From contig JBDRLP010000063.1 in NCBI GenBank assembly GCA_043812975.1, positions 1-38,616 of the forward strand: DNA of 38,616 bases, read 5' to 3'. Shown here in pieces: positions 5,324-35,083 of this stretch. This stretch comes from Candidatus Iainarchaeum sp. (GTDB taxonomy: Archaea; Iainarchaeota; Iainarchaeia; Iainarchaeales; Iainarchaeaceae). Positions within the stretch are counted from its first letter, which is position 1, and the number at the start of each line of letters is the position of its first letter. A program made the translations under genes and the position numbers. Below the pieces are notes generated by a model, which worked only from the letters and a program-made list of their open reading frames with translations, made no database searches and was not told where the DNA came from.

Positions 5324-6049
5324 TTATTTTATTTTAGCTATGCAAATAAGACTTATCCCAAACGGTAAATAAACCCCTTTTTTTATCAGCCAATTTTCAG
5401 TTTTTAGTAAGCGAGTTAGGATAAAATTGATCTTTTTATTAGGCGTATTAATATCTGACTTGATGTGTATTTTTAACACATATTCATTCAAAATTTTTAT
5501 TAGTGCTATTATTGGAAATAGAAAAAAATTCCAATAACTAATAAGCTCTATTTCAAAACCTTCTTTTTTTAGCAATTTTAAAATCTCTTTTTTTTCATAT
5601 CTTCGATAATGGTGGCCTATTCGGTCATGTGCTGAGAACAATATTTTGAATGCAGGTATTGTCAGGAGCAAGCGACTGTTTTTTTTCATGATTTTTTTTG
5701 CTTTTTTTATTGCCCCTGCATCGTCTTTTATATGTTCAAGTATTTCAGACATTACTATAAAATCATATTTTTTTTGGGGCTTAAAGTTTTCTAATGAAGA
5801 TAAATACACTAAAACATTTTTCTTTTTTGATTCATTAACTGCTATTTTATTTATATCTAATCCTTCTACAGAATAACCTTTTAGCATAAAAGCTTCCAGA
5901 GTGTTTCCAGTACCGGCTCCTATTTCAAAAATACTTTTTGTTCCTTTTGGCACTAAATCTATTAATAACTGTCTTTTTGATACAAACCACCAATGGGTGT
6001 TTTCAACATCTTTCATTTTGTTTATTGCGCTTTTTTCTATTAAAATCAC
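5324..6049 (-). CDS. Class I SAM-dependent methyltransferase of the glycosylation-locus type
   Basis: 'HWWF', 'EIGAGTG', 'ILEHIKDD', 'FSAHD..GHHYRRY'; start uncertain (GTG 6049, ATA 6040 or ATG 6016). Confidence 0.88.
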   Translation of the reverse strand: MILIEKSAINKMKDVENTHWWFVSKRQLLIDLVPKGTKSIFEIGAGTGNTLEAFMLKGYSVEGLDINKIAVNESKKKNVLVYLSSLENFKPQKKYDFIVMSEILEHIKDDAGAIKKAKKIMKKNSRLLLTIPAFKILFSAHDRIGHHYRRYEKKEILKLLKKEGFEIELISYWNFFLFPIIALIKILNEYVLKIHIKSDINTPNKKINFILTRLLKTENWLIKKGVYLPFGISLICIAKIK

Positions 6050-9871: not shown

Positions 9872-9956
9872 ATAAACAAAATTATTTGGGGTTGTTCCAA
9901 TGATTAATTTATGATTTTCTTGTTTTTAAATGGTTTTCGGAGCAATGCTATTCTAG

Positions 9957-11585
9957 ATGAATCCCCTAAATTTTGTTTCTAAACCGAAGTTTTTGAATGT
10001 TATTCTTTTCGTATTGGTTTTCTTTTCTATTTCAACTATTCTTTCTCTCTGGAGCCTTTACATTTTCAGATTTGCGCCGTTGATTTTTGTTATTTCGTTG
10101 ATTTTATCTTATTTTGTCCTGAAAAAATTCCCTGTTGAAATGCCTCAAATAAGCATATCTGCTATATATATCGGTCTTGTGATTGTCATTCTTGCAGCTC
10201 AACCTTTTCTGTTTATTACTCCTTTTGCGGATGCCAGTGCTGATCCTGCTGCCCACATAGGCAGTTTAGCAATCGGTCAGACAATGCCTGAAACTTATGG
10301 TAAATTTTCGGATTTGGAATATCGTTATCAGATTGGTTTTCCTCTTCTGGCAAAAATGTTCATTGACCTTTTGTCTTTTGTTTCCAGCAATTTGATTGTC
10401 TGGCTCTTGGGAATTGTTTTTGTTTTTCTTTCTGCGATTCTTATTTATCTGGTTTCACGCGAGTTTTTTTCAGATGAGAAAGCGGGGCTTCTCGCTATTA
10501 TGTTTTTTATTGGTTCTAAAATAGTTTTTCAGAATCTTTTTTGGGGGCAATATACCTTTCTGCTTGCATCAGTATTTTTCTTAGCGACGTTTCTTGCCGT
10601 TCTGAAAAAAAACCCGCTTGCATTTTTGTTTTTTCCACTGATTTTAATTGCTCATCCGGGCGTTGCCTTGTATGCCGTAATTTTCTTCGGCATTTATTTT
10701 GTTTTTTCCAGAGATTTTGAACAAACTGCAAAACTCTTTTTGAGCGGAATTTTGGGTTTACCGAGTCTTTTTATCACTTATATTCCTATGCTTGCTAATC
10801 TTGGAAATGAAAAGGCAATACCGTTTTTAATTTCAAATATACCCGGCAACATAATAATTTTTTCTCTTTGGATTGGTCTTCTGATTTTTGCATTTGCAGT
10901 TTTGGCAATACTTTTTATTATTATTAAGAAAAAATTCGACAAAAAGAACATTTTCTTAATTGCTGTTTTCATTGTTGCGTCTGGGCTGTCAATATATTTT
11001 GTATCTATTGGGCGAGTTCTTGGAGGGCGGGTTATAGAACTTGCAATGTTTTCAGGATTATTGCTGGCAGTTTATGCTGTTCTTCAGATTATTCGTTCTG
11101 AGTTACCCAAAAAAATTTCGAATGAGCGCAACTTGTTCCTGATTTCTTTTTTCTTAATTTTTATTTTTTCAATAGCCTTATTTTTTACTTCTAACCAGTT
11201 AAACACTTTGAAAAGCGGTTCAAAAATTAATGCTGAGGGAATAGATTTTGCTTTTGCATTCAAAAGTTTTGATCCTGAATATAAGAAAACTCTGTTTTTG
11301 ATTGAATATCGTGCCAAAATTGCTGAATTATCCCAAAAAATACCTTATGATGTAAATTCTGGTTTTTATCTTTCTTATGCTCCAATGGTATCTGGGGATG
11401 ATCCGTTTTATGCGGAGTTAGAAAAAAGACATATTTTGGCGGAAAATGCCAGAAAAAATGCTTGTGTGGAATGCATACGTGAGGCGGAAGTTGAGTATGT
11501 TGTTGCTAAAGATGATTTTTTTTCGGAAGAACTTGGTTTAAAAAAAGTTTTTGAATATAAAGCGTATAAAGTTTTTTCGAGGTAA
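9957..11585 (+). CDS. Large polytopic membrane protein, GT-C glycosyltransferase-like
   Basis: Many TM segments, loop motif 'DASADPAAH' then 'YQIGF', soluble C-terminal domain ending 'VEYVV...KVFEY...KVF'. Confidence 0.55.
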   Translation: MNPLNFVSKPKFLNVILFVLVFFSISTILSLWSLYIFRFAPLIFVISLILSYFVLKKFPVEMPQISISAIYIGLVIVILAAQPFLFITPFADASADPAAHIGSLAIGQTMPETYGKFSDLEYRYQIGFPLLAKMFIDLLSFVSSNLIVWLLGIVFVFLSAILIYLVSREFFSDEKAGLLAIMFFIGSKIVFQNLFWGQYTFLLASVFFLATFLAVLKKNPLAFLFFPLILIAHPGVALYAVIFFGIYFVFSRDFEQTAKLFLSGILGLPSLFITYIPMLANLGNEKAIPFLISNIPGNIIIFSLWIGLLIFAFAVLAILFIIIKKKFDKKNIFLIAVFIVASGLSIYFVSIGRVLGGRVIELAMFSGLLLAVYAVLQIIRSELPKKISNERNLFLISFFLIFIFSIALFFTSNQLNTLKSGSKINAEGIDFAFAFKSFDPEYKKTLFLIEYRAKIAELSQKIPYDVNSGFYLSYAPMVSGDDPFYAELEKRHILAENARKNACVECIREAEVEYVVAKDDFFSEELGLKKVFEYKAYKVFSR

Positions 11586-11632
11586 ATGAATATAATTATT
11601 GTTAAAATTATTTATAGTGGAAAGGTGTTTTT

Positions 11633-12340
11633 TTGAAGGGTAAAGTTTCAATAGTAGTTCCTGTATTCAATGCTGAAAAAATAGTTCTTCATACGCTTAA
11701 TGCTTATTATAATTTTTATTCAAAAAATTTACCTAATTTTGAGATTATCGCGGTTGTAAACAATTGCTCTGATGACTCATTGAAAATAGTCAGTGAATTT
11801 GCAAAATCCCGAAAGGAAATGAGTGTGATGAATTTTGATTATTATACCGGTAAAGGCGGCGCTGTTATTGAGGGTTTCAAGAAAGCCAAAGGTGAAATAA
11901 TAGGGTTTGTTGACCAGGATAATTCTGTTGTGCCAAAAGAATTTTTGAAACTGATTCATGAATTTAAAAATGGTTTTGATGTGGTTATAGCTTCCCGTGC
12001 AGTGAATGATTCTGTTTTATTAAAAGCACAGCCAATCTATCGTCAGATTCTGGGCAAGACTTTTAATGCTATTGTAAATTTGTTTTTTGATTTAAGAGTT
12101 AATGATTCTGTTTGCGGGGCTAAGATTTTTTCAAAGAAAGCGGTTAATCTGTTCCTCAAAGAAAAAATTGTTAAGGGGTTCGAATTTGATGTACAATTAT
12201 TGTGGATAGCCAAAAAGAATGGTTTTAATATAAAGGAAAAAGGAATTGCTTGGTCGAACTATGAAGCTTCTACGATGGGTTTTACAGACCCGTTTAAAAT
12301 GTTCATTAGTGTACTAAAATTGAGATTTGGTTTAATCTAA
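11633..12340 (+). CDS. GT2 dolichyl-phosphate glycosyltransferase-like protein
   Basis: 'SIVVPVFNAE', 'GKGGAV..GF', 'FVDQD', 'IASRA', 'DSVCGAKIF', 'GFEFDVQLL'; TTG start after AGGTG. Confidence 0.9.
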   Translation: MKGKVSIVVPVFNAEKIVLHTLNAYYNFYSKNLPNFEIIAVVNNCSDDSLKIVSEFAKSRKEMSVMNFDYYTGKGGAVIEGFKKAKGEIIGFVDQDNSVVPKEFLKLIHEFKNGFDVVIASRAVNDSVLLKAQPIYRQILGKTFNAIVNLFFDLRVNDSVCGAKIFSKKAVNLFLKEKIVKGFEFDVQLLWIAKKNGFNIKEKGIAWSNYEASTMGFTDPFKMFISVLKLRFGLI

Positions 12341-12365
12341 TAGGGTTTAATTGTTTTTATAGTTT

Positions 12366-13307
12366 TTAATGTTGACTGTCTGTTGTGAAATAATAGTAAA
12401 TTGAATAAAAAGGCGCTGCTAAATCTCTTAACATGGCTAATGCACTAAACAAAATAAAATCTCCAAATTCAAATGAGTATTTTCTAAAGTTTACTAAATA
12501 TCTGAAGATAAAATAAACTGCTAGAAAAAAAAATGCATAATAATAGTTCATTCGTATTACCGCGCCAAAAATTAATGCTGTTATGCCCCAAGAAAAAAAT
12601 GATTGTTTTAACAATCCTGCTACAGGGAAACCAAAATATTTTTTGAATAATTTCGGATATTGTTTTGCAAGAAGTATTTCAGTGCGTATATAATAAAGTT
12701 CTTTGAAAATATTTAAAGGGCTGGATTTTCGCAATGGGTGGTAAACTATTGCGTTTGGTTCGAAAACAATTTTTTCATTTTTAGTAAGCAGCTTAAACTG
12801 CAGTACTGTTTCTTCTCTGTAAAAACGGAAATTTTCATCATATCCTCCTATTTCAATTAATTTATTTTTTTTGAAAGCCATGTTGCTGGCTGGTCCTAGA
12901 ATTCCTTTTAAATGCTCAACTCCATGGTCGAATATTCTTCCTTTATTCTTAATCGTTTTTCCGGTTACTGCTGAAATTTTTTTATCTTCATCAAATGCCA
13001 GGTTTATTTTTTCAAGCCAGTCTTTTTTCGGAATGCAATCATCGCTTGTAATTGCTATTATTTCTCCTTTTGCTTTTTTTATTCCAAAATTATTTTTAGC
13101 ATCAGGCCATTGAGATTCAATATCAAAATATATTATTCTTTTGTTAGTTGAAAATAGTTCCTTCATAGAATTTTTTTTGCATCCTACAAAAATTATTTCA
13201 TGTTTATTTTTAGGGTATGTTTGGTTTTCTAATGCCGTTGCTAGGTTTTTTGTGGATTCTATTCTGTGAACTGGGACTATAATGCTAATGAAGTTTAAGT
13301 TTGTCAT
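12366..13307 (-). CDS. GT2 glycosyltransferase with C-terminal TM helices
   Basis: 'ISIIVPV', 'AITSDDC', 'WLEKI', 'SNMAF', 'GGYDENF'; ATG 13307 (MTNLNF) preferred. Confidence 0.88.
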   Translation of the reverse strand: MTNLNFISIIVPVHRIESTKNLATALENQTYPKNKHEIIFVGCKKNSMKELFSTNKRIIYFDIESQWPDAKNNFGIKKAKGEIIAITSDDCIPKKDWLEKINLAFDEDKKISAVTGKTIKNKGRIFDHGVEHLKGILGPASNMAFKKNKLIEIGGYDENFRFYREETVLQFKLLTKNEKIVFEPNAIVYHPLRKSSPLNIFKELYYIRTEILLAKQYPKLFKKYFGFPVAGLLKQSFFSWGITALIFGAVIRMNYYYAFFFLAVYFIFRYLVNFRKYSFEFGDFILFSALAMLRDLAAPFYSIYYYFTTDSQH

Positions 13308-13323
13308 AATAAAGCACTTGTAA

Positions 13324-14304
13324 TTAAGACGGATTTTCTTTGAACCATTCAATTGTATTTTTGATTCCTTCTTCTAAAGAAATTTTTGATTGAAATTTTA
13401 ATATTTTTTCTGCTTTAGAGGTATCACATATTCTCATGAGGCTTCCAGGGTCTGAAGAATTATCATACTCTATTTTTGGGTTTTTACCCGTAATTTTCCC
13501 GATTTTTTCTACTAAATCAGTTATTTTAACTTTTTCTTTTGTCCCAAAGTTGATTGGATCAGGTTTGGGATAAATTTCAGCAAGTTTCACAAGACCTCTG
13601 GCGAGTTCAGTTACATAGATAAAACTTCTTTCTTGTTGTCCGTTTCCAATTATTTTCACCTTGTTTTTTTCAAGTATTTCTTTGATAAATGTTGCAATAA
13701 CATGGGTTTTTACTCTGGGGCCATAAACATTAAATGGTCTGGCAATACCGATTTGTATTCCGTGTTCTTTGGCAAATGCGGTTGCATAGATTTCTGAAAA
13801 TATTTTACTCCAAGAATAAGCTAATTTTGCACTATCAGGGCGGTCAGATAATTGAGTATCTTCTTTTATGTAACCTTTAGCATTTTTTGGGTATACGCAT
13901 GCTGAACTAACCAGAATTGTTCTTTCTACTTTTGATTCTTTTATTGCGTCAAGAATATTTACTGTCATAATAAAATTATTTTTAAGCAGTGTAGCAGGAT
14001 GTCTTGACCCTTGGCGTGTTTCTTCAACTATTGCTGCGAGATGAAAAACAACATCTATATCTTTAGTTGCTTTTTTGCATTCTTCCGGATGTTCCAGATT
14101 AACTTCAATAATTTCAATTTTTTCTTTACTTTCTGAAAGATTGTTCTTTGTTCTTTCGCTGTTTTTGTTCCTGGTGATTACTCTAACAACAGCTCCTTTT
14201 TTTACCAGTAAATCCACAAGATGACTTCCAATAAAGCCGGTTCCGCCTGTAACTAAAACTTTTTTGTTTTTCCAGAATTCCAAGTTTATCCCTACAATAT
14301 CCAT
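13324..14304 (-). CDS. Extended SDR, GDP-L-fucose synthase / GDP-sugar epimerase-reductase-like (paralog of 28542..29510)
   Basis: 'TGGTGFIGSH', 'SSACVYP', 'YSWSK', 'RPFNVYGP', 'THVIA'. Confidence 0.8.
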   Translation of the reverse strand: MDIVGINLEFWKNKKVLVTGGTGFIGSHLVDLLVKKGAVVRVITRNKNSERTKNNLSESKEKIEIIEVNLEHPEECKKATKDIDVVFHLAAIVEETRQGSRHPATLLKNNFIMTVNILDAIKESKVERTILVSSACVYPKNAKGYIKEDTQLSDRPDSAKLAYSWSKIFSEIYATAFAKEHGIQIGIARPFNVYGPRVKTHVIATFIKEILEKNKVKIIGNGQQERSFIYVTELARGLVKLAEIYPKPDPINFGTKEKVKITDLVEKIGKITGKNPKIEYDNSSDPGSLMRICDTSKAEKILKFQSKISLEEGIKNTIEWFKENPS

Positions 14305-18425: not shown

Positions 18426-19859
18426 TTATCCGTTCTTGTCGAGATGTCTTGCACCTCTGAAATTATCTATTTCTCCAGCGTAAAGAGCGGTAAAATCCTT
18501 TATTATCTTTTTTGCCTCTTCCATGTTTCCTGATGTGTGCTTATAATGATCCATAACAAGATCAGTGTTCACCTCAAGAAGTAGTTTGTATGCTTGCGCA
18601 TCAGGAATACTCATATTATTAATAAAAATCAAATCAGAGTTCTTGAATTTCTTGAAAAAATCTTCTGCTCCGCCAAGTTTTCCCTGTTTAATAAGAGTGT
18701 AATATAATGGGCTTCCCGGGTAGGGAGTTACAGGCCTGATTGTTCTGCACTGGTCATAGGTGTTGTATTTCATTATGAGGTTGGCGTTATTCCTCAGTAT
18801 TTCTGCAGTATCTCCAAAGTTGTTCCAAATAAAATTCAGCCCCATTCCTACTCCGCCGACTTTTTTCACGACCTCAAGGGCATTAATGTTCTTTTCAACA
18901 GTAGTATTCTTTTCCATTATCTTGAGAACGTTATCATCAGATGACTCGAAACCGAAATTAATGAATGTGCATCCGCATCTCTTAAGTATTTCTATAAGTT
19001 CTTCATCAATTAAATCAACACGGGCATTGCATGAAAATTTTATTTTAAGATTTGCCTCTTTAAGAGCTTTCTCAAACTCGCGCAGGCGTGTTTTTGACAG
19101 TACAAAAAGTTCGTCCAGAAAATAATAGCAGGTCACTCCATATTTTTCATAAAGAATCTTTAGTTCTTCTATAATATTCTGGAGGCTTCTTACTCTAATT
19201 CCTCTCTCGAGCCTATAACAAAAATTACATCTGTTGATGCATCCTCTGCTTGAAAGAAAAACAAAAGTTTTTTCCCCTGGGTCCTGTTTGAAAAATTTTA
19301 TTGAGTTAACATATTCTTCCATTGGAAAAATTTCCCAAAGCGGAAATGGAATTTCATCAATATTACTAATGGGAGCATCTCTTTCGTTAACAATCAGTTC
19401 TCCGTTTTCTATGTAGGAAATGCTCTTAATATCCTTCAATGGTTTGTTGTGTATTTTTGCATCCAAAAGTTTGATTATTCCTTTTTCAAATTCACCAATT
19501 GCAATGATATCTGCTTTTGTTTCTTTGAGCATATATTCTGGAATTGGAGATGGACCAGAACCTCCAAGAACAAACCATGCATTTTTTTTATGAGCATTAA
19601 TTGTTTTACATAACTCTCTTATAGTTTCCTCGAAACGTGCTGCCATGAAGCCTAATCCTATCAAATCATATTCATTTTCATCAAGGTGTTTTGCAAGATC
19701 CTCATTAGTGTAATGAAAAATATCCATGCAGTATGCTTCCACCTGAGCGCCATTCTCATGCAGAACTGCAGCAAGATATGCCGGACCAAGAGGAAGAAGA
19801 TTGTCATCTTGGTAAACATCATGAATAATGAAAAGAACCTTGTTTTTCTTTGTAAACAT
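18426..19859 (-). CDS. Cobalamin-binding radical SAM protein (class B methylase-like)
   Basis: N-terminal B12-binding domain ('PLGPAYLAAVL', 'VLGG', 'GEFE'); 'SRGCINRCNFC' CxxxCxxC; 'GFES', 'TPYPGS'. Confidence 0.9.
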   Translation of the reverse strand: MFTKKNKVLFIIHDVYQDDNLLPLGPAYLAAVLHENGAQVEAYCMDIFHYTNEDLAKHLDENEYDLIGLGFMAARFEETIRELCKTINAHKKNAWFVLGGSGPSPIPEYMLKETKADIIAIGEFEKGIIKLLDAKIHNKPLKDIKSISYIENGELIVNERDAPISNIDEIPFPLWEIFPMEEYVNSIKFFKQDPGEKTFVFLSSRGCINRCNFCYRLERGIRVRSLQNIIEELKILYEKYGVTCYYFLDELFVLSKTRLREFEKALKEANLKIKFSCNARVDLIDEELIEILKRCGCTFINFGFESSDDNVLKIMEKNTTVEKNINALEVVKKVGGVGMGLNFIWNNFGDTAEILRNNANLIMKYNTYDQCRTIRPVTPYPGSPLYYTLIKQGKLGGAEDFFKKFKNSDLIFINNMSIPDAQAYKLLLEVNTDLVMDHYKHTSGNMEEAKKIIKDFTALYAGEIDNFRGARHLDKNG

Positions 19860-27108: not shown

Positions 27109-28545
27109 ATGATTCATATTGAAAGCAATAAAATTATTTATACAATGGCAATTATTGCGTTTATTCCAATCCTCATTGTTTGTGCTGGATTCATCCAGAA
27201 TGCGGATTCTTTTGCATCTGCTGATTTGAGTTCCAATATTGTTAATTTGTTTTTTTTGGAAAAATACGGTTATTTAGAGAATGCCGCTGAATGGCAAAAC
27301 GGAAATTATTTAGCTCTTTCATTTTATTTCCCGCTGTCTTTTTTCTTTGCCCTGCCGATTTACAAACTGCTTTTGTTTTTCTCTGTTCCAAATGCGCTTT
27401 CATTAAGCGGTTTTGCGGTTATGCTTTTATCCGTGATTTTTTTACTTTTTATTGCAAAAAAAGAGTTTGCGAGTTTATCTTTAGGAATTATTTTTCTTTC
27501 TCTGGCTTTTTTTAATAAAATTTCAATTAATACTTTTTTTGAAACCCAAAGAATGGCCACTATTTTTGCATGGATTTTCTTTTTAGCATTTATGTTCAAA
27601 TGTTTCCGTATTTTTAATAAAAAAGAATTCTCTTTCAAGGATGCGGTTTTCGTCGGCCTAACATGGTCTCTTTCAGTAATGGCTTATGCGCATTTCCTGT
27701 TATATGGTTTGTTTGTTTTCCCGTTTATTTTACTCATTAATAAGTTTGATTTTAAAAAAATCGGAATTGTGGCATTTTTAGTTTCATTAAATCTTATCTG
27801 GATTATTCCTGCATTCAGTTCTTATTCAGATTCTGCTATTTCAATAATGTCCTGGTTTTCAAACATTCCCTTAACTTTTTTTGCTTTTTCACTTTTGGTT
27901 TTGTCTGCACTTATTTATTTTTCTTTTAGTGAAAAAAATGAGGTGACAAAAAAATTCCTAAAATTTAATGCATTGATATTCGCATTTATTGTTTCAGGAG
28001 TATCAAGTTTCATCCCTGTTTTGAACAAGTTCATGTTTACCTTATATCTTCAGTACTTCACAGTTGTTGCAGTATATTTTTTAATCATGAAAATTTTGTC
28101 TTCAGATAAAAAAGTTCTTTATTCAGTGTTCTTGGTTGTCCTTGCTTCATCAGCATATTCAGCGGTTTATTTTTCTGATTTTAGTGATAGGGCCAATTTT
28201 AATAATACTATTTGCAAGGAAGCAGATGGTATTGCTGAGGATATAATAGAACCTTACATGTTTATTGGTGATTCGAAAGGATGTTACATTTCTGGTTATT
28301 TAGCCGCACAACATGGCAAGGTAACTTTATTTGACGGACTTTCTTATTCGCTTCCCATTCATTTGTATGAATCATATAATGAAATAAAAACAGAAATTGA
28401 GGTTGATTGTGATTCAACAGTTAAACTCATGAAAAAATTAAAAGCAGGTTCTGTTATTTGTACAAATGAATTTTGCGAAAAATTAAATTGTATTGAAACA
28501 ATTGCATCTACTGAAAATCTGCAGGTTAAATCACTGAATAATTAG
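27109..28545 (+). CDS. Polytopic membrane protein, GT-C-like (hypothetical)
   Basis: Multi-TM; first loop 'SADLSSN...WQNG...FYFPLSF'; Cys-rich soluble C-terminus. Confidence 0.5.
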   Translation: MIHIESNKIIYTMAIIAFIPILIVCAGFIQNADSFASADLSSNIVNLFFLEKYGYLENAAEWQNGNYLALSFYFPLSFFFALPIYKLLLFFSVPNALSLSGFAVMLLSVIFLLFIAKKEFASLSLGIIFLSLAFFNKISINTFFETQRMATIFAWIFFLAFMFKCFRIFNKKEFSFKDAVFVGLTWSLSVMAYAHFLLYGLFVFPFILLINKFDFKKIGIVAFLVSLNLIWIIPAFSSYSDSAISIMSWFSNIPLTFFAFSLLVLSALIYFSFSEKNEVTKKFLKFNALIFAFIVSGVSSFIPVLNKFMFTLYLQYFTVVAVYFLIMKILSSDKKVLYSVFLVVLASSAYSAVYFSDFSDRANFNNTICKEADGIAEDIIEPYMFIGDSKGCYISGYLAAQHGKVTLFDGLSYSLPIHLYESYNEIKTEIEVDCDSTVKLMKKLKAGSVICTNEFCEKLNCIETIASTENLQVKSLNN

Positions 28546-29510
28546 TTTTTTTTGTACCAATCAATCGCATGTTTTAATCCTGATTCAAATGGTTCTTTTG
28601 CTTCAAAACCGAGTATTTTTTTTGCCTTTGAATTATCGCTTGCTCTTCTTGGCTGGCCGTCAGGATAACTTGAATCTAATACAAGTTTCTTTTTTGATCC
28701 GGATATTTTTAGTATCATTTCAGCAAGTTCTTTTATGCTGATTTCCTGGTCGCTTCCGAGATTTAAGGGATCCGCAACAGGGTATTTTTCACAAACTTCA
28801 AGCAGACCTTTAGCAAGATCTTTGACATAAATAAACGATCTTGTTTGTTTTCCGGAGCCCCAAACAACCATTTTATCTCCTTTTGCAAAGGCTTTTTTTA
28901 TCAATGCAGCGATTACATGGGATATGCTATCATCATACTTGTCCCGCGGACCATAAGCATTATAGGGTCTTGCAATAGCTATTTTCATCCCGAATTCTTC
29001 ATAATACGCTTTTGCCTGTATTTCGGCCAGTCTTTTTGCCCAGCCATAACCGTAATTTGTCGGTTCAGGGCTATCTTTGAATCCTTCGCTTTCAGGAGTT
29101 GGAATTGTTACTTTTCTTGGATAAACACAAGCACTGCTGACAACCAAAAATCGTTCAATTCCTTCAATACGGCTTGCCTCCAGTATGTTGGTGTTCATGA
29201 TAATATTTTCAGTTAATATTGAACCTGGGTGTTTAATGTTATACTCTATACCTGCAACATTACTGGCAAGGTTCAGTACAATGTCCATATTTTTTACTGC
29301 TTTTTTACAGTCTTTTTCATTAGAAAGGTCGGCTTTAATTATTTTGATTTTTTCAGGATTTTCAATATTCTGTTTGATTTTTTTGCTTTTGGAATCTCTC
29401 ACGGTTATTGTGGTATTTGCGCCTAATTTAATCAGTTCATCAACTACATGGCTTCCTACAAAACCAGCTCCGCCTGTTACCAATACATTTTTGTTTTTAT
29501 AAAATGACAT
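28542..29510 (-). CDS. GDP-L-fucose synthase-like extended SDR (3,5-epimerase/4-reductase)
   Basis: 'TGGAGFVGSH', 'LASNVAGIEYNIKHP', 'SSACVYP', 'PEPTNYGYGWAK', 'SHVIAALI', 'VWGSG..TRSF', 'PDGQPRR'. Confidence 0.85.
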   Translation of the reverse strand: MSFYKNKNVLVTGGAGFVGSHVVDELIKLGANTTITVRDSKSKKIKQNIENPEKIKIIKADLSNEKDCKKAVKNMDIVLNLASNVAGIEYNIKHPGSILTENIIMNTNILEASRIEGIERFLVVSSACVYPRKVTIPTPESEGFKDSPEPTNYGYGWAKRLAEIQAKAYYEEFGMKIAIARPYNAYGPRDKYDDSISHVIAALIKKAFAKGDKMVVWGSGKQTRSFIYVKDLAKGLLEVCEKYPVADPLNLGSDQEISIKELAEMILKISGSKKKLVLDSSYPDGQPRRASDNSKAKKILGFEAKEPFESGLKHAIDWYKKN

Positions 29511-29637: not shown

Positions 29638-30888
29638 TTATCTTCCTTCAAATTCTATTAAATTAAAAACTTTGTATCCTGCTTTTTCAAGTTTATTTTT
29701 TCCGCCTAACTCCGGGAGGTCGACTATAAAACTGCATTCAACAATTTCTCCGCCAAGTTTAGTAATCAGTTTACATGCAGCCAATGCGGTTCCTCCTGTT
29801 GCTATTAAATCATCGGCAAGCAGAACCTTATCTCCTTTTTCAATTGCATCTTTATGAATCTCTATTTTATCTTTTCCATATTCAAGATCATATTCTTCAA
29901 AAATTGTTTCAGCAGGAAGTTTGCCGGGTTTTCTGATTAAAACAAAGCCTAATCCTAATCTATTAGCCAGAACTGCGCCTGTGATAAAACCTCTGGATTC
30001 TATTCCAACAACAACATCGATTTTTTTATTTTTGTACCTTTCCACCAGCAAATCAATCATCTGATTAAAACCGCCTTTGTCTTTGAGAAGAGTTGTGATG
30101 TCCCTGAACATTATGCCTTTTTTTGGCCAGTTTGGAACAGTTCTTATTTTCGATTTTATAATTTTTTGAATATCAATTTTTTCTTTTTTATTTTCTTTTA
30201 AATTCGAAATCAGTTCCTTCACAAGTAAGAATGAGTTTTTTGATGCTACTCTGCAGAATTCCGTAAAATCAACTGCTGCTGAGTGATCGGCTTTATCTGA
30301 AATTGACCGGATAATTAAATGATGCGTATTATTTAATCCGCATACATGTGCTACCGCAGCACTTTCCATGTCAACACAATCTCCCCTGAATTCTTTTCTT
30401 AGTGATTCGGATTTTTCTTTTGTGGTTATGAATTGGTCTCCTGTAAGTATTCTTCCCTCAATTGCATTCAATCCGATTGATTTTGCTGCAGTAGAAGCAA
30501 CTTTTCTTAGTTCTTCAGAAGCTGTAAAAATTCTTAATTCAGTGAAGGGAATTTGACCTTTTTCAAAGCCTAAATCTTCAGCATTGATATCATGCTGAAT
30601 ACTATCTTTGGAGATAACTATATCTTTTATATTTAAATCTGGGTTGAGTGCTCCTGCAACACCAGTAAATATAATTGATGTTACTTTGAAATTAATAATC
30701 AATATTTGAGTGCATATTGCAGAATTAACTTTTCCTGCACCGGATTTTACAATCACAACTTCTTTTCCTGCAAGTTTTCCTGAAAAAAATGTAAATCCGC
30801 ACAATTCTGTTTTAATCGTTCCTTCTAACTCAGATAAGTATAATTCTATTTCTTCATCCATTGCCCCGATTAGACCTATTTTTTGCAT
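29638..30888 (-). CDS. mtnN-apt: Fused 5'-methylthioadenosine/S-adenosylhomocysteine nucleosidase (aa ~1-230) and adenine phosphoribosyltransferase (aa ~240-416)
   Basis: MtnN: 'IGAMDEE', 'GKVNSA', 'TGVAG', 'TGDQF', 'DMESAA', 'RSISD'. Apt: '[18 protein letters not shown]', 'GIESRGF', 'RKPGKLP', 'YDLEYG', PRPP motif '[13 protein letters not shown]'. One uninterrupted frame. Confidence 0.93.
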
Positions 30889-30945
30889 AATACTTTTTCC
30901 CCCAGTTAATTTTAACTTTGTTTATATTTATTTGGATTTTTCAAA

Positions 30946-32259
30946 TTAGAAATTTTTGACCATTTTACGGGATTTAATGTATTCAAGAGATTTTTTCCTT
31001 TCTTCTTTTAATTCCTCGTTTGACATCACATCATGCTTGAAAATAAAATCTGCATCCATTTCTTCTTCCTTTCCAAGACCGAGTGTCATTATATATTTTT
31101 TGAAATCCTCTTCATCCATTTCCAAACCGAATGTTTGCATATTGTCGTGAATGTCACATCCAGGAAACGGAACCAAAGTTGAAACATCAACTGCGTCAGG
31201 ATTTGTTTCATCACAGAATTGTATTAATCGATCAGCATAACCGAGTTTTTCTCCAGGCAGACCTATTATGAAAAAAGTCCTTACCTGCATTCCTACTTTT
31301 TTCGCGATTTTTATAGCGCTTTTTACATCTTCAATTTTTATTCCTTTGTTTATTTTTTCAATTACATTCGGATCAAGAGACTCAACACCGTAAGAAATTT
31401 CTTCGCATCCTGCATCTTTCATCAGTTGTAAAATTTCTTCAGTTATTTGGTCAACTCTTGTTCCTGCTCTCCACCTGATTTTAAACGGCTTTATTTTTTC
31501 GCAAACTTCTTTTATCCAGTCTTTTCTTGCAGTAATAGTGTCATCGTGAAATCTAAAATTTTTCACATTATATTTTTCTATAATATATTTTATTTCTTTT
31601 ACAACATTTTCAGGAGTTCTTAATCTTAATCTTCTTTGCCACATTTTTTTGCTTGCACAGAATGCACAATTGAAAGGGCATCCTCTTGAAGTAATTACTG
31701 TTGCCGTGGGACCTGCTCCTACAAAAAGCCCGTTTGCACTGAAAACATTTTCAAAAGGCAACATATCTCTGGCAGGAAATGGAATGCTATCCAGATCTTT
31801 AATAAGGTCACTTTGGTAAAATCTTTTTTCATTATTGCCTTTTCTAAAATCATTTAATATTTCCAATATTGTGTTTTCGCCTTCTCCTATTCCGATTTTG
31901 TCAAAAATAGGATCTATTTTATTAGGCACAGATGTTGCATGTATTCCTCCGATTATTGCCCAAGAATTTTTATTTTTGGATTTTGCGATTTCGGCGATTT
32001 TTTTGGCTGCGAGATAATCAGGAGTAGTGGCGGTCAGTGCATAAACATCTGATTTTCCTATATGCTTTGAGAATTCTTCTGGAGCTTTACATCTCAGATC
32101 AGTTATGACAACATTGTACCCTTCTTTTAGAGTAACCGCTGCTAAGTACATTATACCAAGTTCTGGGTTTCTCATTTCATCTCCAAGATAAGGTTTTGGA
32201 GGTATTAAAAATTCTATTTTTGTGTCCTTTTTTTCTATTATTTTTTTTTCAGAATCCAT
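30946..32259 (-). CDS. Cobalamin-binding radical SAM protein (class B methylase-like)
   Basis: 'ELGIMYLAA', 'IGGIHAT', 'GEGE', 'TSRGCPFNCAFC', 'FHDDT', 'YGVES', 'FIIGLPGE', 'PFPG'. Confidence 0.92.
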   Translation of the reverse strand: MDSEKKIIEKKDTKIEFLIPPKPYLGDEMRNPELGIMYLAAVTLKEGYNVVITDLRCKAPEEFSKHIGKSDVYALTATTPDYLAAKKIAEIAKSKNKNSWAIIGGIHATSVPNKIDPIFDKIGIGEGENTILEILNDFRKGNNEKRFYQSDLIKDLDSIPFPARDMLPFENVFSANGLFVGAGPTATVITSRGCPFNCAFCASKKMWQRRLRLRTPENVVKEIKYIIEKYNVKNFRFHDDTITARKDWIKEVCEKIKPFKIRWRAGTRVDQITEEILQLMKDAGCEEISYGVESLDPNVIEKINKGIKIEDVKSAIKIAKKVGMQVRTFFIIGLPGEKLGYADRLIQFCDETNPDAVDVSTLVPFPGCDIHDNMQTFGLEMDEEDFKKYIMTLGLGKEEEMDADFIFKHDVMSNEELKEERKKSLEYIKSRKMVKNF

Positions 32260-32300: not shown

Positions 32301-33398
32301 CTATTCCTTAAGCAATCCTCTTAATTTTTGTTTAAATGCACTTATAGAAAGAGTTTGTTCAAAAAATTTCCTCGAATTAAAACCCATTTCCTTAATTTCT
32401 TTTTTGTTTTTTTGCGAGAATTCCAGCATTAAATCCGCCAGTTTTTTGTAATCATTCTGTGGAAATGTTTTCCCACAATTATTATCATCAATTATTTCTT
32501 TCAAATCCCCGGTGGAAGTGCTTAGAATAGGTTTTCCAAGTTCAAGATAAGTAGAAATCTTATGTGGGTAGGTGTATTCTGCAAAATCTCCCCTGTAACC
32601 GCAGAGAAGAACATCACAGCTCTCAAGAGCATCTAAAAATTCTTTGTCATCAACTCTGCCCAGAAATTCAATATTTTTTTCCGGAATTTTGGAGTATTTT
32701 TCTTTATCAACTCCCGCAAAAACAAATTTCAATTCAGAATCTTTCTTCAGGCACAATTTGGCTGCTTTCAGTAGCGTGTCAACTCCCTGATAATAAGCAT
32801 CATTCCCTCCATATCCAAAAACAAAACCATTGTGGTTTTTTCCATTTTTTTCCGCAGTGCTTTTCACAGGCCCGTAAATTAGATATATTTTGCTTTTCAT
32901 AAACCCATATTTTTTCTCTAAATAAATTCCCATTTTTTTGCTTGGAATAACTATCTTGTCTGCACTTTTCACTGCTATCCATTCGCATATGCGAATGAGA
33001 AAATTTTTTTGAAATTTTCCAAGTGAATGAATTTCTAAAATATGTTCGCAGCCAAAAAGCAAACGATAAAAAGCGACAACACAACCCGCAACAAGCGCTA
33101 TTGAATAAATTTTTTTAGGCCTCTCTTTCACAAGTTTTATGAAAAGTATAGCCATTACAATCGGCTCTCTGAAAAGCTGCGTTACTGCATAAATCCCCGG
33201 AAGTTTTCTTAATTTGCTTTGCCCCAATCCATCGAGTTTTTTTGTAAAATCTATTGTGTTTGAATTGTAGCTGCTTGTTGAGAGTACCTTAATTTTAGTT
33301 ATTTCTCCAAGTGAATCGATTGTTGTTCTGGTTCTTGTCGGAGTTCCGGTTTTTGTTTTCAAATCAAAATTCGTGACTACATATAACAGTTTATTCAT
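32301..33398 (-). CDS. GT4 glycosyltransferase
   Basis: 'ADKIVIPS', 'YQGVDTLLKA', 'FLGRV', 'YPHKISTYLELGKPI'. Confidence 0.85.
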   Translation of the reverse strand: MNKLLYVVTNFDLKTKTGTPTRTRTTIDSLGEITKIKVLSTSSYNSNTIDFTKKLDGLGQSKLRKLPGIYAVTQLFREPIVMAILFIKLVKERPKKIYSIALVAGCVVAFYRLLFGCEHILEIHSLGKFQKNFLIRICEWIAVKSADKIVIPSKKMGIYLEKKYGFMKSKIYLIYGPVKSTAEKNGKNHNGFVFGYGGNDAYYQGVDTLLKAAKLCLKKDSELKFVFAGVDKEKYSKIPEKNIEFLGRVDDKEFLDALESCDVLLCGYRGDFAEYTYPHKISTYLELGKPILSTSTGDLKEIIDDNNCGKTFPQNDYKKLADLMLEFSQKNKKEIKEMGFNSRKFFEQTLSISAFKQKLRGLLKE

Positions 33399-33553: not shown

Positions 33554-35083
33554 ATGAATCTCCCCTCAACAGATTTTTTTAAACATAATTTTGAATCTAA
33601 GATTATAGCAATAGCTGTTTGTGTTTACATTTTATCCTTTCTGATTTTTTACCCGTCTTTTTATGCTTCAATAGATGAACATGGTTATCTGCAGAATACA
33701 GTCCGTCTTGCAAATGGCTCTATAGGGGAACCAGATGCTGAATATGCTGGAAGAGCCATATTTAATGGAGAAGAATATATTTCCACAAGAGTCATCGGGA
33801 AATCAGTTTTTCTTCTTCCATTCATAGTTTTTGGTTTGAGCGGTGCAATGTTTTCAGGTCTTGTTATTCACCTTCTGAATTTTTGCATTCTACTTTTGCT
33901 GTTCAGAAAAATCAAAATTAATAAAATGTTTTCCTTGCTTTACCTTCTTCTGCCGACTTTTGTTTGGGCATCAAGAACTCTTTATCCGGGTTTACTTGTA
34001 CTCACATTTTTCCTTGCTGCATTTTATTTTTATTTCTCTGAAAAAAAGAAGCACAGTTTTTTCACTGGTCTTTTTTTCGGGCTGGCAGTATTAACCCGAA
34101 ATGATGCAGCCTATGGAGTTGTTGCCCTGTTAGTAGTAATGCTTTTCAAGGACAGAGAAAAATTATTTTACACAGTGCTTGGCGGAATAGCACCAGCTCT
34201 TGCACTATTTTCAATTAATTATTTCCTGTATGGAGGTGCCTTATCAACCGGTTCTGGAAGCATTTCTAATCTTCTATTCAATTATGCATCTGACAACATT
34301 GTAACTTTTGCAGTTTACGTTGCATTGCTCATGGTTTTTTTGCCTCTGATTCTAATCTCGCCTTTCTTTGAGAAAAAAACAGGGGCCAAGTGGGAGTTTG
34401 CTGCATTTTCCATTGCTTATCTTGTGATGAACAGCACGTTTACAAACTTTTTCACATTTGAATTCTCATTCCATTCATTGGTGACATCGAGAATGCGTTA
34501 CCTAATTCCTTTAATCGGAGTCTTACTAATTCCTTACTCTGCTTTTCTGACAGAGCTATCAGAAAAAGGATTTGCAAAAAAGCACTTTAAAAAAATAGTC
34601 GTAGTTGTTTTAGTGTTACTTTCAGTTGGCACAATTGTTTTGTCTTCCGTCCATGCAGATTTTTTGCATGAGAAACGGACATTAGTTTTCGAATCGGTTT
34701 ACTCAAATACTCCTGCTAATGCATTAATTGTCGGAAGCAGTGATGATGCGATGTTTTTTGTGAAAAAACTTTTTCCTGACAGAAAATATCTCAACATAAA
34801 CCCTGGTTCAGATCTCGGCGGAAACCCTGAGAATATCAGAGTGATTGAAAAAATTAAAGAAAATAAGGAATCTTATCTTTTACTGATATCCTATACTCAT
34901 GTTGAGGAAAAAAATTCTCCAAGATCTGAACTAGTTGACTCTGAGAGGAAAGAAATATTCAATTTTTATGAAGCTAATGCAGAGTCATTTGATTTGATTG
35001 CTTTTGAGCCTGAAATACAGATGTGGCTGTATAAGTATAATGGCGGAGAACTAAAAAATTCTGTGTCAGGTGAACAAAAGTGA
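33554..35083 (+). CDS. GT-C (ArnT/PMT-like) membrane glycosyltransferase
   Basis: 'SIDEHGY' DE motif after TM1, 'GLFFGLAVLTR', 'RYLIP', soluble C-terminal domain. Confidence 0.7.
   Translation: MNLPSTDFFKHNFESKIIAIAVCVYILSFLIFYPSFYASIDEHGYLQNTVRLANGSIGEPDAEYAGRAIFNGEEYISTRVIGKSVFLLPFIVFGLSGAMFSGLVIHLLNFCILLLLFRKIKINKMFSLLYLLLPTFVWASRTLYPGLLVLTFFLAAFYFYFSEKKKHSFFTGLFFGLAVLTRNDAAYGVVALLVVMLFKDREKLFYTVLGGIAPALALFSINYFLYGGALSTGSGSISNLLFNYASDNIVTFAVYVALLMVFLPLILISPFFEKKTGAKWEFAAFSIAYLVMNSTFTNFFTFEFSFHSLVTSRMRYLIPLIGVLLIPYSAFLTELSEKGFAKKHFKKIVVVVLVLLSVGTIVLSSVHADFLHEKRTLVFESVYSNTPANALIVGSSDDAMFFVKKLFPDRKYLNINPGSDLGGNPENIRVIEKIKENKESYLLLISYTHVEEKNSPRSELVDSERKEIFNFYEANAESFDLIAFEPEIQMWLYKYNGGELKNSVSGEQK

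Follow-up and report, generated by a model that had tools for sequence, protein, structure and literature searches.

A fused MTA/SAH nucleosidase and adenine phosphoribosyltransferase in Candidatus Iainarchaeum sp., a probable clean-up enzyme for by-products of S-adenosylmethionine

The window analysed here is a stretch of 38,616 nucleotides from Candidatus Iainarchaeum sp. (assembly GCA_043812975.1, contig JBDRLP010000063.1, positions 1 to 38,616). It contains a gene, mtnN-apt, whose product joins a nucleosidase for 5'-methylthioadenosine (MTA) and S-adenosylhomocysteine (SAH), MtnN, to an adenine phosphoribosyltransferase, Apt. The fusion probably acts as an accessory enzyme of general use that disposes of 5'-deoxyadenosine and MTA, two by-products of S-adenosylmethionine (SAM), and returns the adenine to AMP. 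Each half looks like an ordinary member of its family, and the novelty would lie in the natural bifunctional form, to which there are apparently independently arisen parallels. A sequence-only reading of the same DNA had described one uninterrupted open reading frame (ORF) of 416 amino acids joining a full MtnN and a full Apt. Indeed, both halves score above the NCBIfam equivalog cut-offs.

The N-terminal half contains the Pfam domain PNP_UDP_1 (residues 3-227, 6.8e-55). Positions 2-231 of the 232 in the MtnN model NF004079 match residues 3-231 with 246.3 bits (cut-off 169), and TIGR01704 scores 164.8 bits against a cut-off of 73.8. Residues 2-230 can be aligned with the E. coli MTA/SAH nucleosidase chains 1jys and 4wkc (147 bits). 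In this alignment E13 corresponds to E12 of the E. coli enzyme, M174 and E175 to M173 and E174, R194 to R193, and S197 and D198 to S196 and D197, in agreement with the earlier assignment of E13, E175, R194 and D198 made from the sequence alone. We take E12, E174, D197, M173, R193 and S196 of the E. coli enzyme to be the catalytic acid/base and ribose-binding residues. When the window protein is aligned with 30 fused homologues (31 proteins in all), the corresponding E13, M174, E175, R194, S197 and D198 do not vary. With DeoD, the model for purine nucleoside phosphorylase, this domain scores 72 bits, below the cut-off of 232. A futalosine or aminodeoxyfutalosine nucleosidase was considered and rejected (TIGR03664, 70.7 bits against 124.7). 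The domain is similar over its full length to MtnN/Pfs of the E. coli type, with scores above the cut-offs and the key residues retained, the difference being that here it forms the N-terminal half of an archaeal protein. The bifunctional MTA/SAH nucleosidase-phosphatase (NF005213/PRK06698) is also a natural fusion with an N-terminal MtnN, and the protein matches the first 228 positions of that model. However, it reaches only 159.8 bits (cut-off 768), and the C-terminal partner in that family is a phosphatase rather than Apt, so the protein is not a member.

The C-terminal half contains the Pfam domain Pribosyltran (residues 271-393, 1.4e-15). The Apt models NF002634 (266.2 bits, cut-off 170, residues 238-415) and TIGR01090 (235.9 bits, cut-off 185.85) score far above HPT_Archaea (55.9 bits against 200) and XPRT (54.2 against 177). 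This half aligns end to end with the solved adenine phosphoribosyltransferases 7xi2, 2dy0 and 4mb6 (about 204 bits), and both the motif binding 5-phosphoribosyl 1-diphosphate (PRPP) and the flexible loop LEYGKD match those of the solved enzymes. Among the 31 fused proteins D359, D360, G366 and T367 of the PRPP motif and E336 and Y337 are invariant, whereas T364 and G365 of the same motif are conserved in at least 90%. The likeness to Apt of the bacterial type thus covers the full length, the PRPP motif and the EYG loop; the difference is the position behind MtnN, as stand-alone proteins of about 175 amino acids are the rule in the order. The homologue P0007 carries the database name 'Hypoxanthine/guanine phosphoribosyltransferase'. 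A PurR-like regulator was rejected, because the protein lacks a DNA-binding domain and reaches 39.8 bits with TIGR01743 (cut-off 258.7).

The linker between the domains varies in sequence and length among the 31 fused proteins, and it is always in frame. The linker DNA (about 30178-30195 and beyond) contains no in-frame stop codon, no in-frame ATG, GTG or TTG and no G-rich run resembling a Shine-Dalgarno box, as had been noted earlier for the junction. An AlphaFold2 model built on the alignment of fused homologues has a mean predicted local distance difference test (pLDDT) score of 91.1, and its sole weak block is residues 231-240, with pLDDT of about 64.

One could suppose that the fusion is an artefact, caused by a frameshift or an assembly error in the A-rich linker, or that one half is inactive. 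Indeed, the linker DNA is rich in A-runs, and two unfused pairs described below are one event away from the fused state, being separated by an in-frame TGA codon (genome G056) or joined by an 11-nucleotide overlap (locus L174). However, the full-length MtnN-Apt clusters found in database searches (32 of the best 120) come from independent sources (ENA, JGI, Logan, NCBI, Tara), and the six fused genes in a sample of genomes from the phylum have open frames of 427-502 amino acids with no internal stops. Moreover, the catalytic residues of both halves are invariant, and the frame is kept although the length of the linker changes. In a second genome of the same genus, G069 (locus L001), the fusion is 95% identical, and another 30 fused clusters of full length, drawn from several sources, can be aligned from end to end with linkers of differing length. 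Thus the fusion is not an assembly accident, and an artefact or a dead half is extremely unlikely. The predicted product appears to be a true single polypeptide with both active sites intact.

A word-indexed protein search produced 1679 proteins at E <= 1e-10 among 8000 scored candidates, and the best 120 were classified. The precomputed domain column lists both PF00156 and PF01048 in 102 of them. Sorting of the 120 best clusters by BLAST against domain probes gave 67 fusions of MTA phosphorylase with Apt (MtaP-Apt), 32 MtnN-Apt fusions, 16 proteins with MtnN alone and five Apt-only or partial proteins. In sampled proteins the NCBIfam models identified MtnN with Apt (P0001, P0009, P0011, P0029), MTAP with Apt (P0034, P0035, P0051, P0070, P0088, P0096, P0121; TIGR01694 above its cut-off of 274.85) and the reversed order Apt-MTAP (P0250). 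An exhaustive search of 1.84 billion representatives yielded 21,199 matches at E <= 0.001, of which the best 150 include six MtnN-Apt clusters formed at 50% identity (P0023, P0030, P0032, P0125, P0214, P0238). There are few source names among the listed matches: uncultured archaea, Woesearchaeota and Pacearchaeota.

These counts speak against the fusion being rare. The MtnN-Apt architecture seems to be fairly common in metagenomic archaea of the DPANN type and is no rarity among known sequences, and Apt appears to have been joined independently to two or more different first domains, MtnN and MtaP among them. Annotation pipelines already label such proteins as bifunctional, the JGI record name of P0009 giving both activities. 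No description of an MtnN-Apt or MtaP-Apt fusion was found in the full-text literature searched, a set without subscription journals and without about 1.7 million of the PubMed Central articles. The suggestion that the fusion is undescribed therefore holds for that literature, but not for the public databases.

The database names of the fusions are inconsistent and partial, namely 'MTA phosphorylase', 'adenine phosphoribosyltransferase' or 'hypoxanthine/guanine phosphoribosyltransferase', for instance in P0007 (the fusion of genome G164), P0036, P0040 and P0013. Other architectures were also seen: a fusion of Maf, a nucleotide pyrophosphatase, with Apt (P0083, 370 amino acids, source name Candidatus Woesearchaeota archaeon), the tandems Apt-Apt (P0127, P0140) and, by NCBIfam, the tandems MtnN-MtnN (P0130, P0156).

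The source genome (G000) has 1.24 Mb in 68 contigs and is 94.5% complete. In its order, 57 of 151 genomes match the fusion protein, but in 52 of these 57 the match is a stand-alone Apt and nothing more. A search with the MtnN half alone matched eight of the 215 genomes of the phylum sample. MtnN is thus rare in this group, in keeping with the earlier remark that most archaea use SAH hydrolase or MTA phosphorylase instead. Six of the eight carry the fused gene (G000, G069, G164, G169, G005, G035), one has a stand-alone mtnN (G180) and one a split adjacent pair (G056). In the family, MtnN-type domains occur in four of 23 genomes, fused in every one. The fusion gene is accessory and patchily distributed.

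In the split pair of G056 (G056:C20, L187:301-480) mtnN and apt are in the same frame and are parted by TGA and two codons. In the second unfused pair (L174:8640-8720) the adjacent genes overlap by 11 nucleotides. Both pairs look as if one mutation separated them from fusion or fission, and either may have preceded the fusion or arisen from it by fission. For 120 MtnN domains a quick tree was constructed, with three tandem proteins longer than 520 amino acids left out and the G035 fusion labelled as stand-alone, since its Apt part is cut by the contig end. The window copy falls into a clade of seven fused proteins (SH-aLRT 96), with G069, P0001, P0002, G169 and G164, the last identical to P0007. 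Fused and stand-alone forms are interleaved, and the backbone is poor, 56 of 115 inner branches being open. Parsimony gives 11 changes of the fused state, of which supported branches force only two; thus the number of fusion events is not fixed by this tree. The copy of G169 (contig G169:C135) belongs to the same genus as those of G000 and G069. Its MtnN half, however, is only 66% identical and groups with that of G164 from another genus, and the gene lies in a housekeeping neighbourhood. Transfer within the family, or an old paralogy there, may be the cause.

That MtnN and Apt catalyse consecutive steps, as had been assumed, is established biochemistry. Passages of PMC8102628, PMC10986504 and PMC6079011 describe the substrates of MtnN, name MTA, SAH and 5'-deoxyadenosine as the SAM by-products of the MtnN-type disposal pathway, and report that 5'-deoxyadenosine inhibits radical SAM enzymes. 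The following account of the substrates, of activity in both domains and of a possible kinetic advantage is inferred from the domain matches and the genome content. The N-terminal domain would hydrolyse the glycosidic bond of 5'-substituted adenosines left by SAM-consuming enzymes, freeing adenine, and the C-terminal domain would condense this adenine with PRPP into AMP. PRPP would be supplied within the cell, where two ribose-phosphate diphosphokinases could provide it. The main substrates would probably be 5'-deoxyadenosine, as there are seven Radical_SAM matches in the genome, and MTA from transfers of the aminocarboxypropyl type. SAH may be a minor substrate. The fusion would ensure that both activities are expressed together and in equal amounts, and it would probably also help a very small cell to retain its adenine. 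The sugar moieties would most likely be discarded, so that the fusion would be the whole salvage route. It would serve all SAM-dependent enzymes of the cell rather than act as a dedicated helper of the neighbouring radical SAM enzyme. The same two-step logic recurs in MtaP-Apt, in Apt-MtaP and in the unfused adjacent mtnN and apt genes, which supports this role.

The metabolic setting agrees with such a role. SAH hydrolase, AdoHcyase, is present in the genome as a frame of 420 amino acids, whereas LuxS was not found there. Hence SAH is probably not the main substrate and would be routed through AdoHcyase, and detoxification of SAH, part of the role given in the sequence-only reading, is not supported as a main task. 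No spermidine synthase above the cut-off was detected in the genome. Neither an isomerase of the MtnA type nor a class II aldolase was found in it, and thus only adenine seems to be recovered. Besides the fusion protein, no purine phosphoribosyltransferase of the Apt/Hpt kind and no enzyme of the MtnN/MtaP type was found in the genome. Other proteins of the phosphoribosyltransferase family are two PRPP synthases, OPRT, a ComF-like protein and a PurF-like amidotransferase. A search of the genome for ahcY, mtaP, pur genes and a second apt, which had been suggested, thus found ahcY and pur genes, but neither mtaP nor another apt.

The two ribose-phosphate diphosphokinase paralogues (G000:C29:1363-2238 and G000:C19:1250-2203) belong to different subfamilies. 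The only other PNP_UDP_1 protein of the genome is weakly similar to AMP nucleosidase and has a long charged tail. It is encoded at G000:C3:10678-11970 on the forward strand (L061) and has 431 amino acids, with the weak PNP_UDP_1/AMP-nucleosidase-like match in the N-terminal half of about 200 residues and no family match in the highly charged C-terminal half. Five further genomes of the family have similar frames, of 430-470 amino acids.

Another possibility is that the fusion scavenges purines of a host or of the environment, with the nucleosidase acting mainly on imported nucleosides of the adenosine type. Small genomes are typical of host-dependent archaea of the DPANN type, and the source genome is of this size. 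Further, an MtaP-Apt gene (L128) adjoins a permease of the xanthine/uracil family, and the split pair of G056 (L187) adjoins a transporter of the major facilitator superfamily (MFS). However, the N-terminal domain is an MTA/SAH nucleosidase equivalog and not a purine nucleoside phosphorylase or AMP nucleosidase, as the DeoD score given above illustrates. MtnN-type enzymes generally require a 5'-substituted ribose. The genome has de novo purine genes, and no transporter gene adjoins the fusion gene in the window. Scavenging is therefore a very unlikely main function.

Several observations weigh against the proposed clean-up of 5'-deoxyadenosine and MTA. The preference among MTA, 5'-deoxyadenosine and SAH is not readable from the sequence. 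De novo purine genes (AdSS, PurM/PurL-like, PurF-like) are present, so adenine salvage would save cost and is not required. Sixteen of the 23 family genomes have no PNP_UDP_1 match, and thus relatives live without the function, whose benefit may be small or conditional. The predicted template modelling score (pTM) of the AlphaFold2 model is 0.64, which leaves the relative orientation of the domains unfixed, and the model therefore gives no support to channelling. Finally, LuxS, MtnA, the aldolase and MtaP could lie in the missing part of the genome.

The entire window is a surface-glycan island. It encodes NeuB, a cytidylyltransferase, DegT aminotransferases, epimerases, glycosyltransferases of the GT1, GT2 and GT4 families and a flippase-like protein, and the second B12-binding radical SAM gene and the class I methyltransferase ascribed to the locus earlier were both found in it (Table 1). 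Base composition gives no sign of recent transfer, GC content being flat over the window (0.30-0.36). The island also encodes two large, apparently multi-pass membrane proteins of 478 (27109-28545, forward strand) and 509 (33554-35083, forward strand) amino acids, with no Pfam match or sub-threshold matches only (PMT_2, 20.1 bits against 26.1). Both are kept in G069, where the former is also without a Pfam match. These proteins may be glycan polymerases or transferases.

Table 1. Features of the window around the fusion gene and other SAM-related genes of the island
Feature	Coordinates	Strand	Description and evidence
mtnN-apt fusion gene	29638..30888	-	single open frame, 416 aa, ATG start; ORF call, Pfam, NCBIfam
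MtnN (MTA/SAH/5'-deoxyadenosine nucleosidase) domain, predicted	30196..30882	-	residues 3-231; NF004079, residue alignment
Lys/Glu-rich linker	30178..30195	-	approximately residues 232-237; variable among homologues, low pLDDT
Apt (adenine phosphoribosyltransferase) domain, predicted	29644..30177	-	residues 238-415; NF002634, TIGR01090
57-bp spacer	30889..30945	-	from radical SAM stop codon to fusion ATG; read by eye
B12-binding radical SAM gene	30946..32259	-	437 aa; B12-binding and Radical_SAM (Pfam)
GT1-family glycosyltransferase	32301..33398	-	first gene of the co-directional run; Pfam
NAD-dependent sugar epimerase/dehydratase	28542..29510	-	co-oriented, 127 bp downstream of the fusion; ORF call, Pfam
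Second gene for a B12-binding radical SAM protein	18426..19859	-	context only
Class I SAM methyltransferase of the island	5324..6049	-	context only

The coordinates confirm that the fusion gene lies 57 bp downstream of a B12-binding radical SAM gene in the same orientation, as stated in the sequence-only reading. Inspection of the spacer by eye revealed two motifs, which may both be chance occurrences in a genome with 33% GC: the TA-rich segment TAAATATAAA (30930-30921) and, 10 nucleotides ahead of the fusion ATG, the run GGGGG (30903-30899). The 57 bp contain no long T-run. The spacer would fit either co-transcription with the radical SAM gene or a promoter belonging to the fusion gene. The neighbouring protein contains the domains B12-binding (PF02310) and Radical_SAM (PF04055), and the CxxxCxxC motif reads CPFNCAFC in the translation. 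However, it falls below every NCBIfam equivalog cut-off. BchE gives the highest score (149.5 against 481), and both it and AprD4 (86 against 500), another of the best matches, are non-methylases. As no equivalog cut-off is reached, the role of a methylase remains putative. Thus the earlier assignment to the class B radical SAM methylases is upheld as regards the B12-binding domain, the radical SAM core and the cysteine motif, whereas no characterised methylase family is reached.

A rival model, in line with the sequence-only reading, ties the fusion to the glycan island as a dedicated module: transcribed together with the gene of the putative B12 radical SAM methylase, the fusion would clear SAH and 5'-deoxyadenosine of this enzyme locally and recover the adenine. 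The short spacer between co-oriented genes, with no long T-run, fits this proposal, as do the two B12 radical SAM genes and the methyltransferase in the island. In G069 the radical SAM protein is 96.6% identical, and the order of the glycosyltransferase, radical SAM, fusion and epimerase genes is the same. In G164, which belongs to another genus of the family, the fusion is also situated within a glycan cluster, and the analogous MtaP-Apt fusions often adjoin elp3 and methyltransferase genes. On the other hand, a B12 radical SAM gene stands beside the fusion in two of the six fusion genomes only, both of one genus, and since these two copies are 95% identical, the adjacency amounts to one effectively independent observation. 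The glycan cluster of G164 (two epimerases, GT1, NeuB) has no radical SAM gene in the nine ORFs scanned. The fusion of G169, a genome of the same genus with 66% identity, is surrounded by the housekeeping genes of ABC-F, DnaJ, RNase HII and TatD, with no radical SAM gene. Two genomes of the same order have unrelated neighbours and no radical SAM gene, although the contigs are short: Fic and DUF7544 in G005 (4.8 kb), and Kae1/TsaD and an amino-acid permease in G035 (6.4 kb, with the fusion gene at the contig end). Neither of the two unfused mtnN and apt pairs adjoins a SAM enzyme, the neighbours being SepF, ZPR1 and threonine synthase in one case and the MFS transporter in the other. The possible TATA-like box and the G-run in the spacer also speak against a dedicated module, and so does the putative status of the methylase. 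The role in glycan methylation suggested from the locus is thus not supported by the comparison, and a dedicated module seems unlikely next to a clean-up enzyme serving the whole cell.

The MtaP-Apt fusions of archaea of the Pacearchaeota type (P0034, P0096, L002; TIGR01694 with Apt) resemble MtnN-Apt in the two-step logic, the order of domains, the approximate length and the kind of organism. Their first domain, however, is a phosphorylase of another subfamily, and therefore MtaP-Apt is an independent fusion event. They also differ in genomic context. In nine of 23 MtaP-Apt loci (L117, L120, L129, L134, L136, L139, L143, L145, L155) a divergent gene of about 455-464 amino acids with Radical_SAM and Radical_SAM_C, sometimes also GNAT, is the immediate or almost immediate upstream neighbour; of the remaining 14 loci, three have less than 400 bp of sequence on that side. 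In all four cases tested this gene is elp3, with scores of 531-536 bits for TIGR01211 (cut-off 350). Among the nine fusion proteins pairwise identity is 55-90% (median 63%), and thus the arrangement of elp3 and mtaP-apt has outlasted considerable divergence, although the loci come from related lineages and are not independent samples. A class I methyltransferase of about 200 amino acids is encoded within two ORFs downstream in ten of the 23 loci, often behind the pair of elp3 and mtaP-apt, and L123 has a weaker methyltransferase match on the opposite strand. Further neighbours also have a part in adenine or SAM metabolism: a PfkB-AdoHcyase fusion (L156, described below), PfkB (L161), an IF-2B/MtnA-like gene (L144), the xanthine/uracil-family permease mentioned above (L128) and AdSS (L133).

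Directly upstream of the MtaP-Apt gene L156:8001-9281, an 823-residue protein (L156:5153-7624, forward strand) combines a PfkB-family kinase, similar to adenosine kinase, with a complete AdoHcyase. It would be a second two-step fusion leading from a by-product to AMP, in this case from SAH via adenosine. In L116 a family B DNA polymerase with a LAGLIDADG intein is encoded 600 bp downstream of the MtaP-Apt gene (9876-13526, reverse strand).

The wider claim that these fusions are linked to SAM enzymes is thus supported in part: the sister MtaP-Apt genes adjoin elp3 and methyltransferase genes, whereas such recurrent neighbours are wanting in the MtnN-Apt family itself. A looser link to SAM-using enzymes has some comparative support. 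A much stronger statement would be that archaea of the DPANN type have repeatedly and independently built proteins converting SAM by-products to AMP (MtnN-Apt, MtaP-Apt, Apt-MtaP, probably PfkB-AdoHcyase), and that selection has kept them beside radical SAM and methyltransferase genes, namely Elp3 in the MtaP-Apt lineage and a B12 radical SAM gene in the genus studied here. The reason would be that a cell of minimal metabolism has to remove 5'-deoxyadenosine where it arises and cannot do without the adenine. The fusion would then be kinetically coupled and possibly channelling. We consider this statement doubtful.

Functional analogues are the bacterial operons of the dihydroxyacetone phosphate (DHAP) shunt, which, as described in passages of PMC10986504 and PMC6079011, also split the nucleoside by-product and reuse its adenine. 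There, however, the enzymes are separate proteins and the sugar is metabolised too, whereas here one protein is present, and the isomerase and aldolase were not found in the genome. As neither LuxS nor genes for salvage of methylthioribose or 5-deoxyribose were found in it, the fusion is not part of a methionine salvage or DHAP-shunt pathway.

Both enzymes are textbook ones, and fusion of consecutive steps is familiar in evolution, so no principle is changed. The protein would nevertheless be a clean natural system for studying kinetic coupling or channelling of adenine between a nucleosidase and Apt, and it exposes the inconsistent naming of such proteins in databases. The existence of several independent architectures, together with the Elp3 and methyltransferase neighbours of MtaP-Apt, points to real selection for coupling of the two steps, which seems to be undescribed in print. 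For the archaea themselves, the fusion would show how cells with reduced genomes may handle 5'-deoxyadenosine and MTA without the methionine-salvage or DHAP-shunt routes, recovering only the adenine.

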